Assembly: GCA_001787005.1 (NCBI GenBank)
Contig: MFUV01000010.1
Coordinates: forward strand, 73,955 to 137,954
Length of the DNA stretch: 64,000 nucleotides
From: Candidatus Nomurabacteria bacterium RIFCSPLOWO2_01_FULL_39_18
Lineage (GTDB): Bacteria > Patescibacteriota > Minisyncoccia > Phycocordibacterales > UBA9973
Direction: 5' to 3'
Shown: positions 3,798 to 31,520 of the stretch, piece after piece
How the letters are laid out: each line of letters opens with the position of its first letter
Position numbering within the stretch: the first letter of the stretch is position 1
Made by a program: the position numbers and the translations under genes
The notes under the pieces: model-generated
What the model was told of the DNA's origin: nothing
Seen by the model: only the letters and a program-made list of their open reading frames with translations
The model's database searches: none

Positions 3798-4691
3798 TTG
3801 GTGCTGCGGATCTGGCTCATTTTTTTGATTAAAATACATTGGTGTGCTATTGTTTTCAGGATGAATCCCCCAGAAATTACAATGAATAAAGACAATTCTT
3901 TACAATCCATTCCTCGCATAATTTTCTTTCTTTTGATGATTACATTGGTTGTTTATTCCTCGTCTTTAAGCATAAGATACAGACGAGAAGAACAAATCAA
4001 AAAAATTGAATCTGAAAAAAAAATCTATTTGACTGGAAAATTTGAGCCGAGCGAGCGAGAAGATTTTGTTTTGATTTCACCGGAAAATGCTTTCGGTGCG
4101 AACGATATGTATTTAAGGAAAGAAGCTTACGGAACATTTATTTTGATGCGCGAAGCCGCCAAAGAAGATGGAATTGATTTAAAGATAGCTTCAGCTACTA
4201 GGAATTTTGATTATCAAAAAAATATCTGGGATGAAAAATGGGCTGAGCTTGAAGTTGTTGATGGAAAAAATATAGATCAAGAAATTCCCGACGGATTAAG
4301 GCGATTTAAAAAAATATTAGAATTCAGTTCGGCTCCTGGCACATCCAGACACCATTGGGGCAGTGATATTGATATAAATAGAGTCAATCCTCTTTATGCT
4401 GGCAGCGCTAGAGATGAAATAGAAAGAGAAAAAATATATGCCTGGCTTGTTAAAAATGCCGCTCAATTTGGATTTTGCCAAACCTACACTCTCAAAAATG
4501 AAGCTAGAAAAACTGGGTACAAAGAAGAAAGGTGGCATTGGTCTTACCTGCCGCTCTCCAAAGCGCTGACGCAAGAATACAAAATTTTAGTAAAAAATGA
4601 AGATATCAAAGGATTTTCGGGCGACGAATTCGTTTCCACTTATGATCTCGTCAACAACTATGTGCTAGCCATCAACCCCGATTGTATCTAG
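3798..4691 (+). CDS. Peptidase M15 (VanY/D-Ala-D-Ala carboxypeptidase-like) with N-terminal TM segment
   Basis: SRHHWGSDIDIN matches the M15 S-x-H-x-x-G-x-A/D-x-D zinc-ligand motif, and the C-terminal EERWHWSY resembles the EPWHxRY motif. The true start is probably the Met at about 3882 (MNKDNSLQ...). Confidence 0.6.
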   Translation: MVLRIWLIFLIKIHWCAIVFRMNPPEITMNKDNSLQSIPRIIFFLLMITLVVYSSSLSIRYRREEQIKKIESEKKIYLTGKFEPSEREDFVLISPENAFGANDMYLRKEAYGTFILMREAAKEDGIDLKIASATRNFDYQKNIWDEKWAELEVVDGKNIDQEIPDGLRRFKKILEFSSAPGTSRHHWGSDIDINRVNPLYAGSARDEIEREKIYAWLVKNAAQFGFCQTYTLKNEARKTGYKEERWHWSYLPLSKALTQEYKILVKNEDIKGFSGDEFVSTYDLVNNYVLAINPDCI

Positions 4692-5213
4692 ATTCTCTGC
4701 TGCAATGTTCATAGAGTTATTGACTTCCCCATAATCTGGCAATTCTTCTACTGATTTTATGCCCATGAAAGATAGTGCTTCAAAACTTGGTTTGTAAATA
4801 TATCGTCTGCTGTCTTTTGCATCCGTAGATTTCTCTATAAGCCCGCGTACCGACAAAGCCCGCAAGGTGAAACTTGAATTTACTCCCCTGATATAATCAA
4901 TCTCTGCCCTACTCACCCCATTTTTATAAAGTATGATAGATAGTGTCTCTAGACTTGCTTTCGAAAGATCCTTGTTTAGTTCTTCCTTCTGTAAATCTTC
5001 AATAAGTTTGGAAAGTTCTGGCGCAGTTCCCAGAGAAATGTCATTTTCCTTTTCGAGCAGGACTATCCCCCGCCCCGCCAGATTTTCTTTCAGTTTTTCT
5101 ATACCTTCATTTATTTCACTTATTCCAACTCTCAAAACATCTCCGAGTTTTTTTCGCGATATTGGTTCTCCTTTCCAAAAAAGCACTGCCTCGATTTTTT
5201 TTTCCAAATCCAT
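4665..5213 (-). CDS. scpB: Segregation and condensation protein B
   Basis: N-terminal IEAVLFWKGEPISRKKL matches the ScpB winged-helix signature (IEALLF..GEP.S). Size is 182 aa. It lies directly downstream of scpA. Confidence 0.7.
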   Translation of the reverse strand: MDLEKKIEAVLFWKGEPISRKKLGDVLRVGISEINEGIEKLKENLAGRGIVLLEKENDISLGTAPELSKLIEDLQKEELNKDLSKASLETLSIILYKNGVSRAEIDYIRGVNSSFTLRALSVRGLIEKSTDAKDSRRYIYKPSFEALSFMGIKSVEELPDYGEVNNSMNIAAENLDTIGVDG

Positions 5214-5221
5214 AATTTTAA

Positions 5222-5974
5222 TTACTGTTTTGTTATGACAATATCTTCGAAGTGATTATTTTGCACCGCGTCCAGAATTCCATTTCTTACTAATTCCAGC
5301 ATTGCTAAAAATCCCACTATCACCGTCACCTTCTCTTCCCGCGTAGATACCTTGCCCGCAAATTCGGAAAAGTTCATCTTGAGAGCAGTTTGTATCCTTT
5401 GCGAAAGTCTATTAATCATTTCTTCTATGCTTATAACCTTTCTCACTTCCGCTTCCGGCAAAATTATTTTTTGGGGCATTCCTCCCAGAACCTCGCGCGC
5501 GAAAGTCATCATTGATTCTCTGGTAATCTGATTATCCGGCAAAAATACAAGAACTTGATTTTTCTGTTCCTGTGGCGCAAAAATTATTTTTTTTCCAAAA
5601 TTACTTTTTATATGTAGAGAAAGTTTCGTAAAAAGTTCATATAAACGCAATTGTTCCTCTAGGCTACGTATATCGCCTTCTTCTTCCGAAGTAAGATTTA
5701 AATTAGGAAGCAATGATTTTGATTTGATCAGAATAAGAGTTGATGCAACCAAAATAAAATTTGAAATTTCCTGTGGGGACAAACCTGCCTGCGCCCCGCC
5801 TGCGCGGGCAGGAGACAGGCCACCTAGTTTGTTCATGTACTCTAGGTAATCTTCCGTTACGGTAGCTAATGAAACATCATTAATAAAAAGTTTCCTTTTT
5901 TCTATGAGATCCAAAAGTAGCCCAAAGGGGCCCTCAAAGCCTGCAGTCTTTATTGTATAGGTATCTCTTTCCAC
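5222..5974 (-). CDS. scpA: Segregation and condensation protein A (kleisin) carrying a 12-aa GC-rich insertion
   Basis: FEGPFGLLLDLIEKRKLFINDVSLATVTEDYL is the canonical ScpA N-terminus. An insertion, LSPARAGGAQAG, is encoded by the 36-nt element at 5784..5819. Confidence 0.8.
   Translation of the reverse strand: MERDTYTIKTAGFEGPFGLLLDLIEKRKLFINDVSLATVTEDYLEYMNKLGGLSPARAGGAQAGLSPQEISNFILVASTLILIKSKSLLPNLNLTSEEEGDIRSLEEQLRLYELFTKLSLHIKSNFGKKIIFAPQEQKNQVLVFLPDNQITRESMMTFAREVLGGMPQKIILPEAEVRKVISIEEMINRLSQRIQTALKMNFSEFAGKVSTREEKVTVIVGFLAMLELVRNGILDAVQNNHFEDIVITKQ
5784..5819. repeat. 36-nt GC-rich palindromic element (cctgcctgcgccccgcctgcgcgggcaggagacagg), copy 1, in-frame in scpA
   Basis: Identical 36-mer also at 21456..21491 inside lepA. 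Both encode LSPARAGGAQAG in the host-gene frame. Contains the hairpin cctgc-gcgg-gcagg. Confidence 0.85.
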
Positions 5975-17259: not shown

Positions 17260-17262
17260 TTG

Positions 17263-17334
17263 TGCCTGGGGGGTGAATCGCACACCCGGCCACTTCCTCT
17301 TCAGGGAAATGCTCTACTACTGAGCTACCCAGGC
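17263..17334 (-). tRNA. tRNA-Phe (anticodon GAA)
   Basis: Minus-strand cloverleaf: gcctggg-ta-gctc-agtagta-gagc-a-tttcc-ctGAAga-ggaag-tggcc-gggtg-tgcgatt-caccc-cccaggc-a. Confidence 0.85.
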
Positions 17335-18616: not shown

Positions 18617-18691
18617 TGGTGCCCCCGGCAGGAATTGAACCTACATCTATCCCTTAGGACGGGACTGTTCTATCCGTTGAACTACGAGGAC
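18617..18691 (-). tRNA. tRNA-Arg (anticodon CCT) with encoded CCA
   Basis: Minus strand: gtcctcg-ta-gttc-aacggata-gaac-a-gtccc-gtCCTaa-gggat-agat-gtagg-ttcaatt-cctgc-cgggggc-a-cca. The acceptor stem has two G-U pairs. The anticodon assignment is moderately confident. Confidence 0.65.
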
Positions 18692-19063: not shown

Positions 19064-19126
19064 TTGATTTTCTGAAATTATCTTCTAATCCTTCTATTGT
19101 ATCATACTTGTCAAGTAAATAAAAAA

Positions 19127-19182
19127 TGTTCAGTGTTAAACACTGTTAAACACTCAGTGTTGAACATTTCGATGTTGAACAT
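19127..19182. repeat. REP-like hairpin repeats, family A (units gtgttgaacac / tgttgaacatttcg), 5' flank of RAYT-1
   Basis: Tandem imperfect palindromes: cagtgttaaacactgttaaacactcagtgttgaacatttcgatgttgaacat. Confidence 0.7.
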
Positions 19183-19573
19183 TTTTATGGCAGTTTTTCA
19201 ATCATTTGTTGGATCGAACATTCACCAGGAAAATCAAAGTTAGGGACATCCCCATACCCAGTAGTGCCACCAATAAGAGCATGCCATAATCGATACTTTT
19301 GTCTTTCTAGGGGGTTGGGATAAGATTGATTGATAATATCTAGGCACCGCTCTTTCCATTTTTGAAACTCGGTAACTCCTATTTTTTCTTGAAAAACAAG
19401 CATCTTTTGCTTAAGTCTAATAATTAACTCTCTCTCTCTGCCGAAGTCTGTAATAATTTTGTACTTTTTTCATCCCTGGATTGTACACCCTCAGCTCCTT
19501 GGGAAAATTTATCTGGTTTTGACATAATATTTGATTTTATCACACCAACAACCCTTTTCCCAATACCCACACT

Positions 19574-19612
19574 AATGTTGAACAATGTTAAACACCGAGT
19601 GTTGAACATTTT
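19574..19612. repeat. REP-like family A copy immediately upstream of RAYT-1 start
   Basis: atgttgaacaatgttaaacaccgagtgttgaacattttt. Confidence 0.7.
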
Positions 19613-19635
19613 TCATAAAGGTATATAATACGGTT

Positions 19636-20301
19636 ATGAGAAATATAAAAATAGCACCCGGAGAATATTATCATATTCTTAATCGTGGAATGAGTAAGCA
19701 ACTAATTTTTCATGACAATAGAGATAGAACAAGATTCCTCTTTCTAATTTTATACTTTCAATCCCCTGTTACAATTCAAAATATACATCGTCCAGTAAAG
19801 TCATTTGTTGAACACTCGGTGTTTAACATTGATAAAGAGATTGAGCAAGAAATTGTTACAAGGAAGTTCGTAGAACTCGTCTCCTTTTGCTTAATGCCAA
19901 ATCATTTTCACTTAATCGTCAAAGAAATCGAGGAAAATGGTATGGCTAGATACATGCAAAGAGTCTTGAATGGTTATACCAAATACTGTAATACAAAATA
20001 CAATAAATCGGGACATCTTTTTCAGGGACCATATAAAGCAGTACATATAAGGAGTAACGAGCAACTTTTATATTTATCTTCATATGTCCACAGGAATCCG
20101 AGAGAACTGAAAGAGTGGTTAAATAAAGAAAGTAGTTATCCATGGTCAAGTTACCAAGATTTTATAAAGAAGAATAGGTTTAAAGAATTACTTGTTCTTG
20201 ATATAATCAGTGGACAATTCAAAAATAAAGACAAGTATAATAAATTTATAAAGGAGAGTACGGCAAAATTATTAAAGGAAGAACTGGATTGGATAGACTA
20301 G
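19636..20301 (+). CDS. REP-associated tyrosine transposase-like (IS200/IS605 Y1 HuH transposase family), RAYT-1
   Basis: GEYYHILNRG near the N-terminus, the HuH motif CLMPNHFHLIV, and the downstream QGPYK with Tyr. Size is 221 aa. A REP-A copy (tgttgaacactcggtgtttaacat, 19806..19829) lies inside the ORF, in-frame. Confidence 0.75.
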   Translation: MRNIKIAPGEYYHILNRGMSKQLIFHDNRDRTRFLFLILYFQSPVTIQNIHRPVKSFVEHSVFNIDKEIEQEIVTRKFVELVSFCLMPNHFHLIVKEIEENGMARYMQRVLNGYTKYCNTKYNKSGHLFQGPYKAVHIRSNEQLLYLSSYVHRNPRELKEWLNKESSYPWSSYQDFIKKNRFKELLVLDIISGQFKNKDKYNKFIKESTAKLLKEELDWID

Positions 20302-20304
20302 TAA

Positions 20305-20351
20305 GTGTTCAGTGTTCAACACCGAGTGTTGAACACTCGGTGTTGAACAAT
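20305..20351. repeat. REP-like family A, 3' flank of RAYT-1 (perfect hairpin gtgttcaacac-cga-gtgttgaacac, then a second overlapping hairpin)
   Basis: The 11-bp stems are exact reverse complements. It sits in inverted orientation relative to the upstream copies, a REPIN-like arrangement. Confidence 0.8.
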
Positions 20352-20428
20352 ATGCGGGATTAGTTTAGTGGCAGAATGAGTCCTTCCCAAGGATTAGACG
20401 GGGTTTCGATTACCCCATCCCGCACCAG

Positions 20429-30629: not shown

Positions 30630-31520
30630 TTATATACCCCACACAGCAGTATTGGCAAGTGAAACAAGGCGATTATTCGACTTTTCCAAGACACAGAGCT
30701 CCCCGGCTTCTGTTTGACCCTTAAAATCTTTCATTATTTCAGCAAGCGCATAACTAAGTGAAAGCGCAGAAGAATCGGTAGCATAAGAAGTCAAAATCAC
30801 AAAAAGGGGCTTGTCGGTTAGAACCCTCCCGACCAAAGAAAGCAGTTTCGGCAACATTTCTTCTATCTTCCATACTTCCCCCCTGGGACCACGGCCGTAC
30901 TTGGGCGGATCCATAATCACAGCGTCATACTTATTGCCTCGTTTTATTTCTCGCTCTAGAAATTTTGTGGCGTCATCTTCTATCACCCGCATTGGCATTT
31001 TATCAAGGCTAGATAATTTTTGATTTTCTTTCGTCCAATTTAATACTTGCTTCGAGGCATCCACATGCGTCACATCTCCACCAGCCCTGAGAGCAAATAG
31101 GCTCGCCACACCGGTGTAGCCGAATAAATTAAGAAATTTTATTTTCTTGCCGGAGTTTTTTATTTTATTCTCTATGTAATCCCAGTGATTTGCCTGCTCC
31201 GGGAAAAATCCCAAATGTCTAAATGGTGTGGGAGAAACAAAAAATTTAATTCCCCTGTATTCCATCTCCCACTTCGTGTCAAGGTTCAACCTTGACATTT
31301 GCCACCCGGCTTTGGCACCAACTTTCGAGCTCCAGAATTTTCCATCAACATTTGTCCACTGTTGTTGAACACTCGGTGTTGAACATTTCGGCCAGACAGC
31401 ATCTTCATAAGGACGAATAAAAGTGTATTTCCCGAATCGCTCCAGCTTCTCTCCACCACCCGTATCTAGAAGCTCGTAGTCCACCCAATCCTTTGAACAA
31501 AAAATTTTTATCTGGTTCAT
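30630..31520 (-). CDS. Class I SAM-dependent RNA methyltransferase, RlmI/RlmK-like
   Basis: LNLFGYTGVASLFALRAGGDVTHVDASKQVLNW is SAM-binding motif I with a post-I acidic residue. Motif IV is VIMDPPKYGRG. It parallels E. coli RlmI (VLNVFSYTGGF...VIVMDPPKF). It hosts a REP-A insertion. Confidence 0.65.
   Translation of the reverse strand: MNQIKIFCSKDWVDYELLDTGGGEKLERFGKYTFIRPYEDAVWPKCSTPSVQQQWTNVDGKFWSSKVGAKAGWQMSRLNLDTKWEMEYRGIKFFVSPTPFRHLGFFPEQANHWDYIENKIKNSGKKIKFLNLFGYTGVASLFALRAGGDVTHVDASKQVLNWTKENQKLSSLDKMPMRVIEDDATKFLEREIKRGNKYDAVIMDPPKYGRGPRGEVWKIEEMLPKLLSLVGRVLTDKPLFVILTSYATDSSALSLSYALAEIMKDFKGQTEAGELCVLEKSNNRLVSLANTAVWGI
31361..31392. repeat. REP-like family A copy inserted in-frame within the methyltransferase gene
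   Basis: tgttgttgaacactcggtgttgaacatttcgg encodes ...PKCSTPSVQQQW... on the minus strand. It is identical in core to the RAYT-1 flanking repeats. Confidence 0.75.

Follow-up and report, generated by a model that had tools for sequence, protein, structure and literature searches.

A stretch of 64,000 nucleotides (nt) from Candidatus Nomurabacteria bacterium RIFCSPLOWO2_01_FULL_39_18, a groundwater bacterium with a tiny genome, carries a gene whose product is related to the RAYTs (repetitive extragenic palindrome [REP]-associated tyrosine transposases). The gene is accompanied by copies of a 23-nt hairpin repeat that overlap its promoter, lie in frame within its open reading frame (ORF), and follow its stop codon. 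This locus is probably a Y1 HUH gene of the RAYT/TnpA_REP class that has been domesticated, is passed on vertically, and resides within a REPtron-like set of its own hairpins. The whole 64,000-nt stretch is referred to below as the window, and the coordinates of its features are collected in Table 1.

The hairpin repeat in the window

The repeat unit, TGTTNAACAC-NNN-GTGTTNAACA, is 23 nt in length, with a stem of 10 bp and a loop of 3 nt. Either arm taken by itself is nearly palindromic, which accounts for the runs of GTGTTGAACAC with a 14-nt period that were recognized in an earlier reading of the window made from the letters alone (the sequence-only reading). When the window was re-read, the coordinates and sequences given in that reading, the two protein signatures in the ORF, and the repeat clusters were all found as described. 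The 10-mer GTGTTGAACA, with no more than one mismatch, occurs 21 times in the window compared with 3.49 expected, a count that was not reached in any of 100 shuffles. Seventeen of the 21 matches fall within 19133-20349 and three fall within 31362-31385. The full unit with up to three mismatches occurs six times (0.03 expected by chance), at 19144-19166, 19586-19608, 19806-19828, 20313-20335, 20327-20349 and 31363-31385; five of these units are situated around the RAYT-like gene, and the sixth is within an ORF for a methyltransferase. The 12-nt arms of the downstream cluster are 100% complementary, and its two overlapping units together make up a palindrome whose perfect arms are 18 nt long; as folded single-stranded DNA this palindrome has a predicted energy of -20 kcal/mol (z = -8.2). 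A search of the window against Rfam matched only tRNAs and assigned the hairpin to no known RNA family.

The RAYT-like protein

The Pfam profile Y1_Tnp (PF01797) matches the protein with 35.8 bits (cutoff of 23, E = 1e-8), which places it in the Y1 HUH superfamily. An alignment of 26 sequences, a check that the sequence-only reading had suggested for the HuH residues and the catalytic tyrosine, shows H90, H92 and Y150 to be invariant, as are N89 and F91 of the N89-H90-F91-H92 motif as well as H152 and N154, while the C-terminal residues W170-S171-S172-Y173 are invariant or nearly so. P155 is nearly invariant (at least 90% conserved), which gives the motif Y-x-x-x-N-P. This motif is the hallmark of TnpA_Y1 class 2 (TnpA_REP/RAYT), whereas IS200 transposases possess Y---Q (Quentin et al. 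2018, PMC6006769). An AlphaFold2 model of the protein (pLDDT 79.4, pTM 0.81) was used in a fold search, in which the best match among solved structures was 4er8_A (E = 7.2e-6, TM-score of 0.65 normalised to the target); IS608 TnpA (E = 1.5e-3) and ISDra2 TnpA ranked behind it. The 4ER8 structure is that of E. coli TnpA_REP bound to a REP hairpin (PMC3479197). Identification of the ORF as a RAYT/IS200-like transposase in the sequence-only reading therefore stands, and HUH residues H90/H92, Y150, the Y-x-x-x-N-P motif and the 4ER8-like fold place the protein in the RAYT/TnpA_REP branch of the Y1 HUH superfamily. That reading had also considered a decayed remnant lacking the tyrosine, or a repeat confined to the locus, but the tyrosine is present and further copies of the repeat exist. 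The RAYT-like protein thus retains an intact HUH/Tyr catalytic set.

Approximately 2000 homologues share words with the protein, and the best 120 of these are full-length, 61-83% identical, and named as Nomurabacteria, Parcubacteria, Minisyncoccia or Patescibacteria. An exhaustive search of cluster representatives found 148 clusters at E <= 1e-30 and 7062 at E <= 1e-10. The 25 homologues aligned at 62-83% identity all begin with MRNIKIAPGEYYH. A database entry identical to the window protein belongs to Candidatus Nomurabacteria bacterium RIFCSPLOWO2_01_FULL_39_18 itself.

Three hairpin sites in relatives

A set of 79 loci was fetched on the basis of protein homology alone, with peptide patterns distant from the internal site; together with loci that contain the gene among the matches of a DNA pattern scan, these made up 96 complete gene loci. 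The internal site, scored as a palindrome of 23 nt in which 8 or more of the 10 stem positions pair, is present at about +170 nt in 87 of the 96 loci, with a few located elsewhere between +161 and +191. The copy within the transposase ORF is not an insertion but a fixed feature of the family. In 84 of the 96 loci a matching copy precedes the gene, located between about -35 and -86 relative to the start codon and in most cases between -35 and -61, and a cognate downstream copy is found in 75, mostly within about 30 nt of the stop codon. The description of the gene as bracketed by its own hairpin repeat, with one copy in frame inside the ORF, was accurate, and flanking of the gene by cognate palindromic repeats is the arrangement of a REPtron. 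Such an arrangement had been thought unusual for this lineage, which is not so, as the gene and its trio of sites are common across Parcubacteria (about 2000 homologues, with the motif in at least about 77 species genomes).

The stem of the hairpin differs between lineages, with variants that include TGTTAAACAC, TGTCAAACAC, TATTAAACAC, TGGTCAACAC, TGTCCAAAGC, TGGTCAAAGC, TGTTAAACAT and TGTTCAACCC, and one stem variant is common to all three sites of a locus. Among 87 distinct sites, 92.5% of cells are paired compared with 76.6% in shuffles (none of 500 reached the observed value), although sites were chosen in part as the best palindrome in the search window and pairing statistics are somewhat inflated as a result. 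Changes on both sides of the stem occur at 9 of the 10 stem pairs, and sliding the register gives no more than 44% paired. Stem pairs 1 (T-A) and 7 (A-T) are near-constant, as is the loop, which is CGA/TCG or, less often, CGG/CCG or TGA/TCA. Loop orientations at the upstream, internal and downstream sites occur in every combination (GCG 21, GGG 16, GCC 11, CGG 9, CCC 6, CGC 5, GGC 5).

At the protein level, some homologues read into, or end in, peptides that resemble a translated hairpin (P0120, P0248, P0298, P0302, P0348, P0356, P0364 and P0389). P0120, for instance, has ...NLNVQHRVLDK, P0248 has VQHSMLH at both residue 55 and residue 199, and a more distant clade has a C-terminal IKH..LD motif, which suggests that the downstream hairpin may lie inside the 3' end of the ORF in some lineages. 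Distant relatives with 35-40% identity (P0329, P0316, P0330, P0310, P0377 and P0322) contain repeated heptapeptides that back-translate to other perfect palindromes. LRSEASQ, for example, occurs twice in P0329 and is compatible with CTGCGAAGC-GAA-GCTTCGCAG, and CGHSMSA occurs three times in P0377. These peptides hint at in-frame cognate hairpins with other specificities in distant sub-lineages. A window fully compatible with a palindrome upon back-translation was found in 37 of 150 distant proteins versus about 25 expected, the latter a rough estimate from the distribution of window scores, so extension of the internal site to distant relatives is only suggestive.

Constraint on the intragenic copy

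The intragenic copy is maintained by selection on the DNA rather than on the peptide that it encodes. Codon use inside the internal site was compared with that elsewhere in the same 78 genes. Inside the site, CAC is used for His in 90% of cases (33% elsewhere), AAC for Asn in 90% (32% elsewhere), GAC for Asp in 95% (28% elsewhere) and TTG for Leu in 88% (16% elsewhere), while GTA is used for Val in 0% of cases inside the site and 31% elsewhere. The encoded heptapeptide occurs in 38 forms in the 78 genes (for example, VKHSVFN, VQSRALD and GQHSVLT), and a flip of the loop exchanges Ser (TCG) for Arg (CGA). Chance and a conserved protein motif were both rejected as explanations for the copy within the ORF because the peptide varies while synonymous positions are fixed.

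The segment FVEHSVFNI of the window protein aligns without gaps to FV[KQE]H[SR]V[FL][ND] in homologues. In the AlphaFold2 model the peptide encoded by the site is located in a coil between two helices (residues 41-66, the aA-aB loop), and residues 53-62 have a pLDDT below 50. Almost any sequence is probably tolerated in this modelled coil.

The upstream copy and the promoter

The -35 hexamer of the predicted promoter, TTGAAC, is the right arm of the upstream hairpin, and the ATG is 6 nt past the TATAAT. A TATAAT-like hexamer is located 5-7 nt before the start codon in relatives as well. The register between the hairpin and the -10 hexamer was determined for 84 sites, and the offset was 0 in 26 of these, 3 in 11, and 15-18 in 30. 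At offsets of 0 or 3 the hairpin abuts the -10 hexamer, and at offsets of 15-18 it supplies the -35 hexamer. Solo sites (copies of the hairpin that are not associated with the gene, see below) have no register with a -10 hexamer, and the possibility that they are operators of a regulon was rejected for this reason.

Hairpin specificity

Where two copies of the gene occur on one contig, they are 61-81% identical and have different hairpins. In one such pair, L160a has TGGTCAACAC at all three sites, while the upstream and internal sites of L160b carry TGGTCAAAGC; the hairpins of L133a and L133b likewise differ. Sites within a genome were compared among the matches listed by the pattern scan described below, using 34 genomes with at least two sites, and the compared sites were often on different contigs. 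The centre pair was the same in 78 of 104 within-genome comparisons versus 34.5 in shuffles (maximum of 51), and the loop variant was the same in 86 of 104 versus 64.6 in shuffles (maximum of 80). In VMFT01, all four of the sites listed possess the rare CGG loop. Homogeneity of the centre pair and loop indicates that the sites of a genome track each other and the gene, as has been described for REP/RAYT pairs.

Inheritance and mobility

The RAYT-like gene is vertically inherited and is not mobile on the timescale examined. In relatives with at least 73% identity the gene order is conserved, consisting of Grx, a variable spacer, the RAYT-like gene, tRNA-Gly(CCC), FtsB and LepA. Identity of the RAYT-like protein of close relatives to the window copy is 79-83%, compared with 78-82% for LepA, and in seven close relatives the same tRNA-Gly is found 30-46 nt past the stop codon. 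More distant members occur in other contexts, such as beside tRNA-Thr. A second, divergent copy of the gene is present nearby in only 5 of about 96 loci. At the level of these loci, the gene has a low copy number and behaves like a vertically inherited housekeeping gene. Many near-identical copies at variable locations, as in the IS200/IS605 family, were not found among the approximately 96 loci, nor was the same-strand orientation of left-end and right-end hairpins that characterizes that family.

Two other associations were considered and rejected. The hairpin motif has a single match in 2.9 million viral contigs, which speaks against an association with phages. Use of tRNA genes as integration targets was discounted given that a tRNA lies within 150 nt in only 10 of 95 loci and that the synteny with tRNA-Gly or tRNA-Thr is lineage-specific.

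The spacer between Grx and the gene ranges from 113 to 1250 nt in syntenic relatives (19064-19635 of the window compared with L120-L123, L078, L128 and L129), so that the region beside the upstream hairpin looks like a hot spot for small indels. In the locus L146 (Ga0155315_111, 3900-5950), the gene and its hairpins are duplicated in tandem, with at least eight hairpin units and with both copies having 59.7% identity to the window protein; the pair is either a recent duplication or an artefact of assembly.

Solo copies and the methyltransferase gene

Solo sites were taken from an exact-pattern scan of one genome per species, which returned at least 119 stretches; the counts that follow are for the matches listed. 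Nearly all of these are from Parcubacteria-type metagenome-assembled genomes (MAGs), which include Nomura-, Niyogi-, Zambryski-, Sung-, Kaiser-, Nealson-, Taga- and Vogelbacteria and Paceibacterota. A few are chance or mis-binned matches (Pseudomonas, Idiomarina, a Methanosarcinales MAG and an Omnitrophota MAG). The Methanosarcinales (L053) and Omnitrophota (L100) MAGs carry exact units on short contigs, including an overlapping doublet with a 14-nt offset as in the window, and these contigs are probably mis-binned Parcubacteria.

About 27 of the stretches hold the gene and the remainder are solo sites. Solo sites are sparse, with approximately one per 50-100 kb and one in the 64-kb window, and the flanks of related loci, 424 kb in all, contain approximately 16 extra sites, most of which belong to second copies of the gene. 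Among the matches listed, no genome has more than five stretches, a lower bound, compared with the more than 100 copies typical of REPs. A GT[AG]G foot is absent from the flanks of 143 gene-linked and 91 solo sites, where information content is at most 0.5 bit per position and the profiles show only a slight enrichment of A on the left and of T on the right. Doublets of the hairpin are only occasional (the downstream cluster of the window, L007, L053 and L119) and the inverted doublet of a REPIN is not the conserved unit. Interpretations known from other systems were also set aside, a DNA-uptake sequence since the density is far too low, and parS-like or LexA-box-like sites given the mismatch in half-site and spacing.

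Most solo sites are outside long ORFs, but 42 of 101 are in stop-to-stop frames of at least 150 amino acids. In six cross-genome pairs the site is in frame at the same place of the same protein, with homologous flanking peptides. One of these pairs involves the solo site of the window (31363-31385), which is in frame in a minus-strand ORF (30630..31520) for a SAM-dependent RNA methyltransferase (Pfam PF10672; PDB 2igt, E = 5.5e-68) and encodes KCSTPSVQQ. The partner in this pair is L066, and the same site also occurs at that position in the methyltransferase of L051, which shares the DNA context. CSTPSVQQ is found in 10 of 30 methyltransferase homologues with 73-79% identity, while the others have either an ALTKEVKE-like segment of the same length or a segment that is three amino acids shorter, as it also is in 2igt. 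A clean 24-nt insertion was ruled out by these lengths, since homologues are of the same length or differ by three amino acids and 2igt differs by only three residues. The site occupies a variable surface segment and is patchy in its presence, reflecting either an ancient gain followed by decay or recurrent acquisition. The sequence-only reading had the repeat spread into a housekeeping gene, but a recent local spread does not agree with the occurrence of the same site in other genomes and in a third of the homologues. In two Fmt-like genes (L052 at 1330 and L106 at 4586), the hairpin is located just before the same segment, ...VVASYGKIIPK, but in different frames (LLNTECST versus IVKHSVFN), which points to separate acquisition events at almost the same position or to local indels that restored the frame.

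The original view of the locus as a RAYT/REPIN-like system can thus be retained only in part. The RAYT-class gene with a cognate hairpin stands, while the REPIN framing and the recent spread do not, the unit being a single symmetric 23-nt hairpin of low copy number that has neither an inverted doublet nor a GT[AG]G foot.

Other features of the window

Table 1. Features of the RAYT-like locus and associated elements, in coordinates of the window
Feature	Coordinates	Strand	Remarks
RAYT-class (TnpA_Y1 class 2-like) gene, 221 aa	19636..20301	+	GEYYHILNRG and CLMPNHFHLIV in ORF
HuH motif codons H90-F91-H92, within N89-H-F-H	19903..19911	+	invariant in alignment
Catalytic Tyr motif Y150-V-H-R-N-P	20083..20100	+	class 2 pattern Y---NP
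Sigma-70-like promoter: TTGAAC (19602-19607), 16-nt spacer, TATAAT (19624-19629)	19602..19629	+	best plus-strand scan match, 10/12
Upstream hairpin TGTTAAACAC-CGA-GTGTTGAACA, overlapping the core promoter	19586..19608	.	part of cluster B, 19574-19612
Intragenic hairpin TGTTGAACAC-TCG-GTGTTTAACA, in frame	19806..19828	.	encodes residues 57-65, FVEHSVFNI
Downstream hairpin cluster, overlapping units 20313-20335 and 20327-20349	20305..20351	.	begins 12 nt past the stop codon
Degenerate extra hairpin cluster A, full unit 19144-19166	19127..19182	.	peculiar to this genome
Solo hairpin inside the methyltransferase ORF	31363..31385	.	identical to the copy at 20327-20349
tRNA-Gly(CCC), syntenic neighbour (context only)	20354..20427	+	starts 3 nt past the downstream cluster

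No counterpart of cluster A was found in L120-L123, which are close relatives. A small ORF (19185..19403, minus strand) separates clusters A and B; it encodes 72 amino acids from its ATG and is divergent from the RAYT-like gene. Its homologous frame runs upstream to about 19445, lacks an ATG where the L131 homologue starts, and has a CT-repeat tract just upstream. The homologue in L131 (3586..3855, 89 amino acids, 64% identity) is also divergent from and immediately upstream of a RAYT-like gene, in a genomic context that is otherwise different in that PurD takes the place of Grx. The product of the small ORF ends in ...WHALIGGT.GY.D.PNFDF.GE.SIQ.MIEKLP and matched nothing in Pfam or NCBIfam. 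The ORF was rejected as a conserved partner of the RAYT-like gene, being present in only 2 of about 200 fetched loci.

The RAYT-like locus is located where gene orientation switches convergently, together with tRNA genes for Phe (17262-17334), Arg (18617-18691) and Gly (20354-20427). GC skew over the window (1-64000) is positive across the plus-strand block at 6-17 kb and negative across the block of minus-strand genes from 20 kb onwards. The switch in orientation and skew near 16-18 kb might suggest a dif-like site or a replication terminus, but this was rejected because the skew follows the coding strand across the window and is uninformative in this regard.

Possible mode of action and alternatives

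If the locus is a domesticated RAYT-class gene with its own hairpins, the RAYT-like protein would bind the hairpin, most likely as a folded single strand by analogy with E. coli TnpA_REP and the REP hairpin, and by analogy with 4ER8 it could nick and rejoin DNA at the hairpin. Recognition would probably depend on the loop and on a small number of stem positions together with stem shape, since stem sequence is free to change as long as it remains paired. With the promoter and intragenic copies occupied, the gene could then be under negative autoregulation, and how much enzyme is expressed would depend on the state of those sites. Solo copies, some of which are in frame in surface-tolerant loops of housekeeping proteins, would be further substrates or products of the same activity, and their sequences might be kept matched to the enzyme through co-evolution or copying.

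Several points weigh against this account. Hairpin binding, cleavage and autoregulation are all activities that we infer for the protein. The NCBIfam model NF047646 (REP_Tyr_transpos) scores 40.1 bits, below its curated cutoff of 80, and the protein is a distant member of the RAYTs and not an equivalog of the curated set. A sequence-profile search of PDB found only ISDra2 TnpA (E = 0.03) and did not link the protein to a solved RAYT, which is why the fold comparison was needed. The -10-like hexamer 5-7 nt before the start codon implies a leaderless transcript, so that from promoter geometry the RAYT-like gene is apparently leaderless. To these can be added the inflation of the pairing statistics noted above. 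The main uncertainty, however, is whether the element acts as a single-stranded hairpin or as a double-stranded palindrome, as the data fit both and the orientation of the loop varies. Stem mismatches are divided evenly between the G.T type (55) and the A.C type (55), with no strand preference; together with the flips in loop orientation, this indicates that neither strand is privileged, and a strand-specific hairpin, whether in RNA or in one DNA strand, was rejected on these grounds. The single-stranded hairpin is nevertheless clearly favoured over the duplex palindrome because the conserved central triplet is not self-complementary and the catalytic residues are invariant.

The duplex alternative, which we consider unlikely, is that the protein is a transposase-derived autoregulator which binds double-stranded DNA, with the 23-bp palindromes serving as operators at the promoter, as auxiliary operators inside and after the gene, and as operators at a few positions elsewhere, with no single-stranded hairpin and no cleavage. 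The near-perfect dyad of the element, its low copy number, the lack of strand bias in loop orientation or mismatch type, and the position of the upstream copy over the -35 hexamer and spacer in a fixed register with the -10 would all suit such a regulator, and a symmetric dimer that reads both half-sites would also give rise to compensatory changes. The lac O2 operator inside lacZ is a parallel for the intragenic site. The invariant HUH and catalytic Tyr residues argue instead for retained catalysis, though, and the CGA/TCG at the centre is not self-complementary, so that the dyad is broken exactly where a loop would be expected. Eight to nine stem positions vary freely if paired, which suits recognition of shape better than base-specific contacts with a duplex; the solo sites lack a promoter register and many are deep inside ORFs; and the closest structure is that of an enzyme on a single-stranded hairpin. 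A broader alternative, about which we are equally doubtful, keeps the catalysis and posits a Parcubacteria-wide, host-beneficial cis/trans system in which an active single-strand nuclease/ligase services a small fixed set of hairpins, with its own three sites forming a self-sensing feedback loop. Some sites would then have been preserved for a long time in housekeeping ORFs under selection at the DNA level, and the system would not be a tamed parasite.

That the gene is part of an active insertion sequence (IS) of the IS200/IS605 type, with the flanking hairpins as left and right ends and the solo copies as excision scars or miniature derivatives, is very improbable. The Y1_Tnp fold, the subterminal-looking hairpins on both sides of the gene, the occasional second gene copy within a few kb (L133, L146, L160 and L172) and a Grx-gene spacer that varies from 113 to 1250 nt are what such an element might produce. 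The syntenic position of the gene and a protein divergence equal to that of LepA are not, and neighbouring copies are 61-81% identical with different hairpins and are therefore old paralogs rather than products of recent transposition. The Tyr motif, moreover, is the Y---NP of class 2 and not Y---Q, the element is essentially absent from viral contigs, and the orientation of the three loops is not conserved, which is incompatible with IS608-type chemistry in which only a single strand is used. There is slightly more, but still very little, to be said for hairpins that function at the level of RNA as a terminator, mRNA stabiliser or translation attenuator, with the association with the gene incidental to any recognition by the protein. 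The downstream copy is right past the stop codon, as a terminator would be, the flanks lean slightly towards A on the left and T on the right, and REPs can influence mRNA stability (background in PMC3479197). With a -10 hexamer only 5-7 nt before the ATG, however, the upstream copy is outside the transcript, and what comes after the downstream copy of the window is a tRNA gene and not a T-run. Loop orientation flips freely with no excess of G.U-type mismatches on either strand, no Rfam family matches, and the paralog-specific co-variation of the hairpins with the protein is left unexplained.

Significance and comparison with known systems

RAYTs are widespread domesticated transposases whose cellular function and regulation have been unknown since 2010 (Bertels et al. 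2017, conclusion). The Parcubacteria locus is an unusually clean case, with very small genomes, few target sites, and a recognition hairpin that differs between lineages and between paralogs, and the fixed promoter/intragenic/post-stop layout leads to a testable prediction of autoregulation. Were the host-beneficial cis/trans system to prove real, a RAYT-class protein would for the first time have a concrete role in the cell and a regulatory logic, and this in organisms with minimal genomes. The intragenic copy is also a clear case of coding sequence constrained by DNA structure, in which synonymous sites are fixed while the peptide drifts, and as such it bears on gene annotation, codon-based tests of selection, and in-frame palindromes in housekeeping genes of the Candidate Phyla Radiation (CPR). 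Text searches of the literature found no paper that links RAYT/REP systems with Patescibacteria or CPR, the one match being a KEGG annotation of a RAYT in an archaeon, and the main text of the 2018 survey (PMC6006769) does not mention Parcubacteria or Patescibacteria.

Like the TnpAs of the IS200/IS605 family (IS608 and ISDra2), the protein has a HUH/Y1 fold and small hairpins occur on both sides of its gene. Unlike those transposases, it is encoded by a gene that is neither multi-copy nor mobile on the timescale examined, has a class 2 Tyr motif, lacks an accompanying tnpB, and has flanking hairpins whose orientation is not conserved.

Among class 2 proteins, the signature of the window protein (NHFH, FQ, Y[IV]HRNP, WSSY, 221 amino acids) appears to fit subclass 2.1 (Bertels group 1, 'TIRYT'), as judged from motifs only. 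Members of that subclass share NH[YF]H, FQ, Y[IV]H.NP, a C-terminal SS tail (WSSY in the window protein), a length of approximately 220-240 amino acids and a low copy number. Subclass 2.1 genes were reported to have no REP-like structures nearby, some members having terminal inverted repeats instead (PMC6006769), whereas a triplet of cognate hairpins is the defining feature here. In subclass 2.4 (Bertels group 4), in-frame REPs are found within tnpA_REP genes and within unrelated genes (Quentin et al. 2018, PMC6006769). The Parcubacteria gene resembles these in having an in-frame cognate palindrome in its own ORF that does not disrupt the protein and is peripheral in the structure. It differs from them in that the palindrome is present as a single copy at a fixed position N-terminal to the HuH motif (residues 57-65 versus 90-92), is found throughout the family, and constrains synonymous sites. 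The motifs differ as well, being FQ and Y[IV]HRNP here and WQ and YIxNNP in subclass 2.4, and the protein does not fit that subclass.

The closest known system is the REPtron of the E. coli RAYT/TnpA_REP type, in which REPs flank a RAYT gene (Nunvar 2010, PMC2817692; Ton-Hoang/Messing 2012, PMC3479197; Bertels & Rainey 2011, PMC3116915). Both consist of a low-copy, vertically inherited HUH/Tyr gene with the Y---NP motif and a palindromic repeat of its own that flanks the gene and occurs elsewhere in the genome. In both, the repeat and gene co-evolve and paralogs have different repeats, and 4ER8 is the best fold for the Parcubacteria protein. The repeat itself differs from a canonical REP in having no GT[AG]G foot and, among the matches listed, far fewer than 100 copies per genome; most of its solo sites are outside long ORFs, and some copies are in frame within genes. 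Where REPs are imperfect palindromes with hundreds of solo copies per genome, the Parcubacteria repeat is a symmetric, perfect 23-nt hairpin with a conserved triloop and a handful of solo copies, and it does not form a conserved REPIN doublet. The host and protein are also different, a member of the CPR/Parcubacteria in the first instance and a score below the NCBIfam RAYT cutoff in the second, and one copy of the repeat is obligatorily intragenic while another lies over the promoter. Compared with known RAYTs, then, the new features are the obligatory promoter/intragenic/post-stop triplet, the very low copy number, the lack of a GTAG foot, and in-frame copies that persist under selection at the DNA level across a large CPR radiation.

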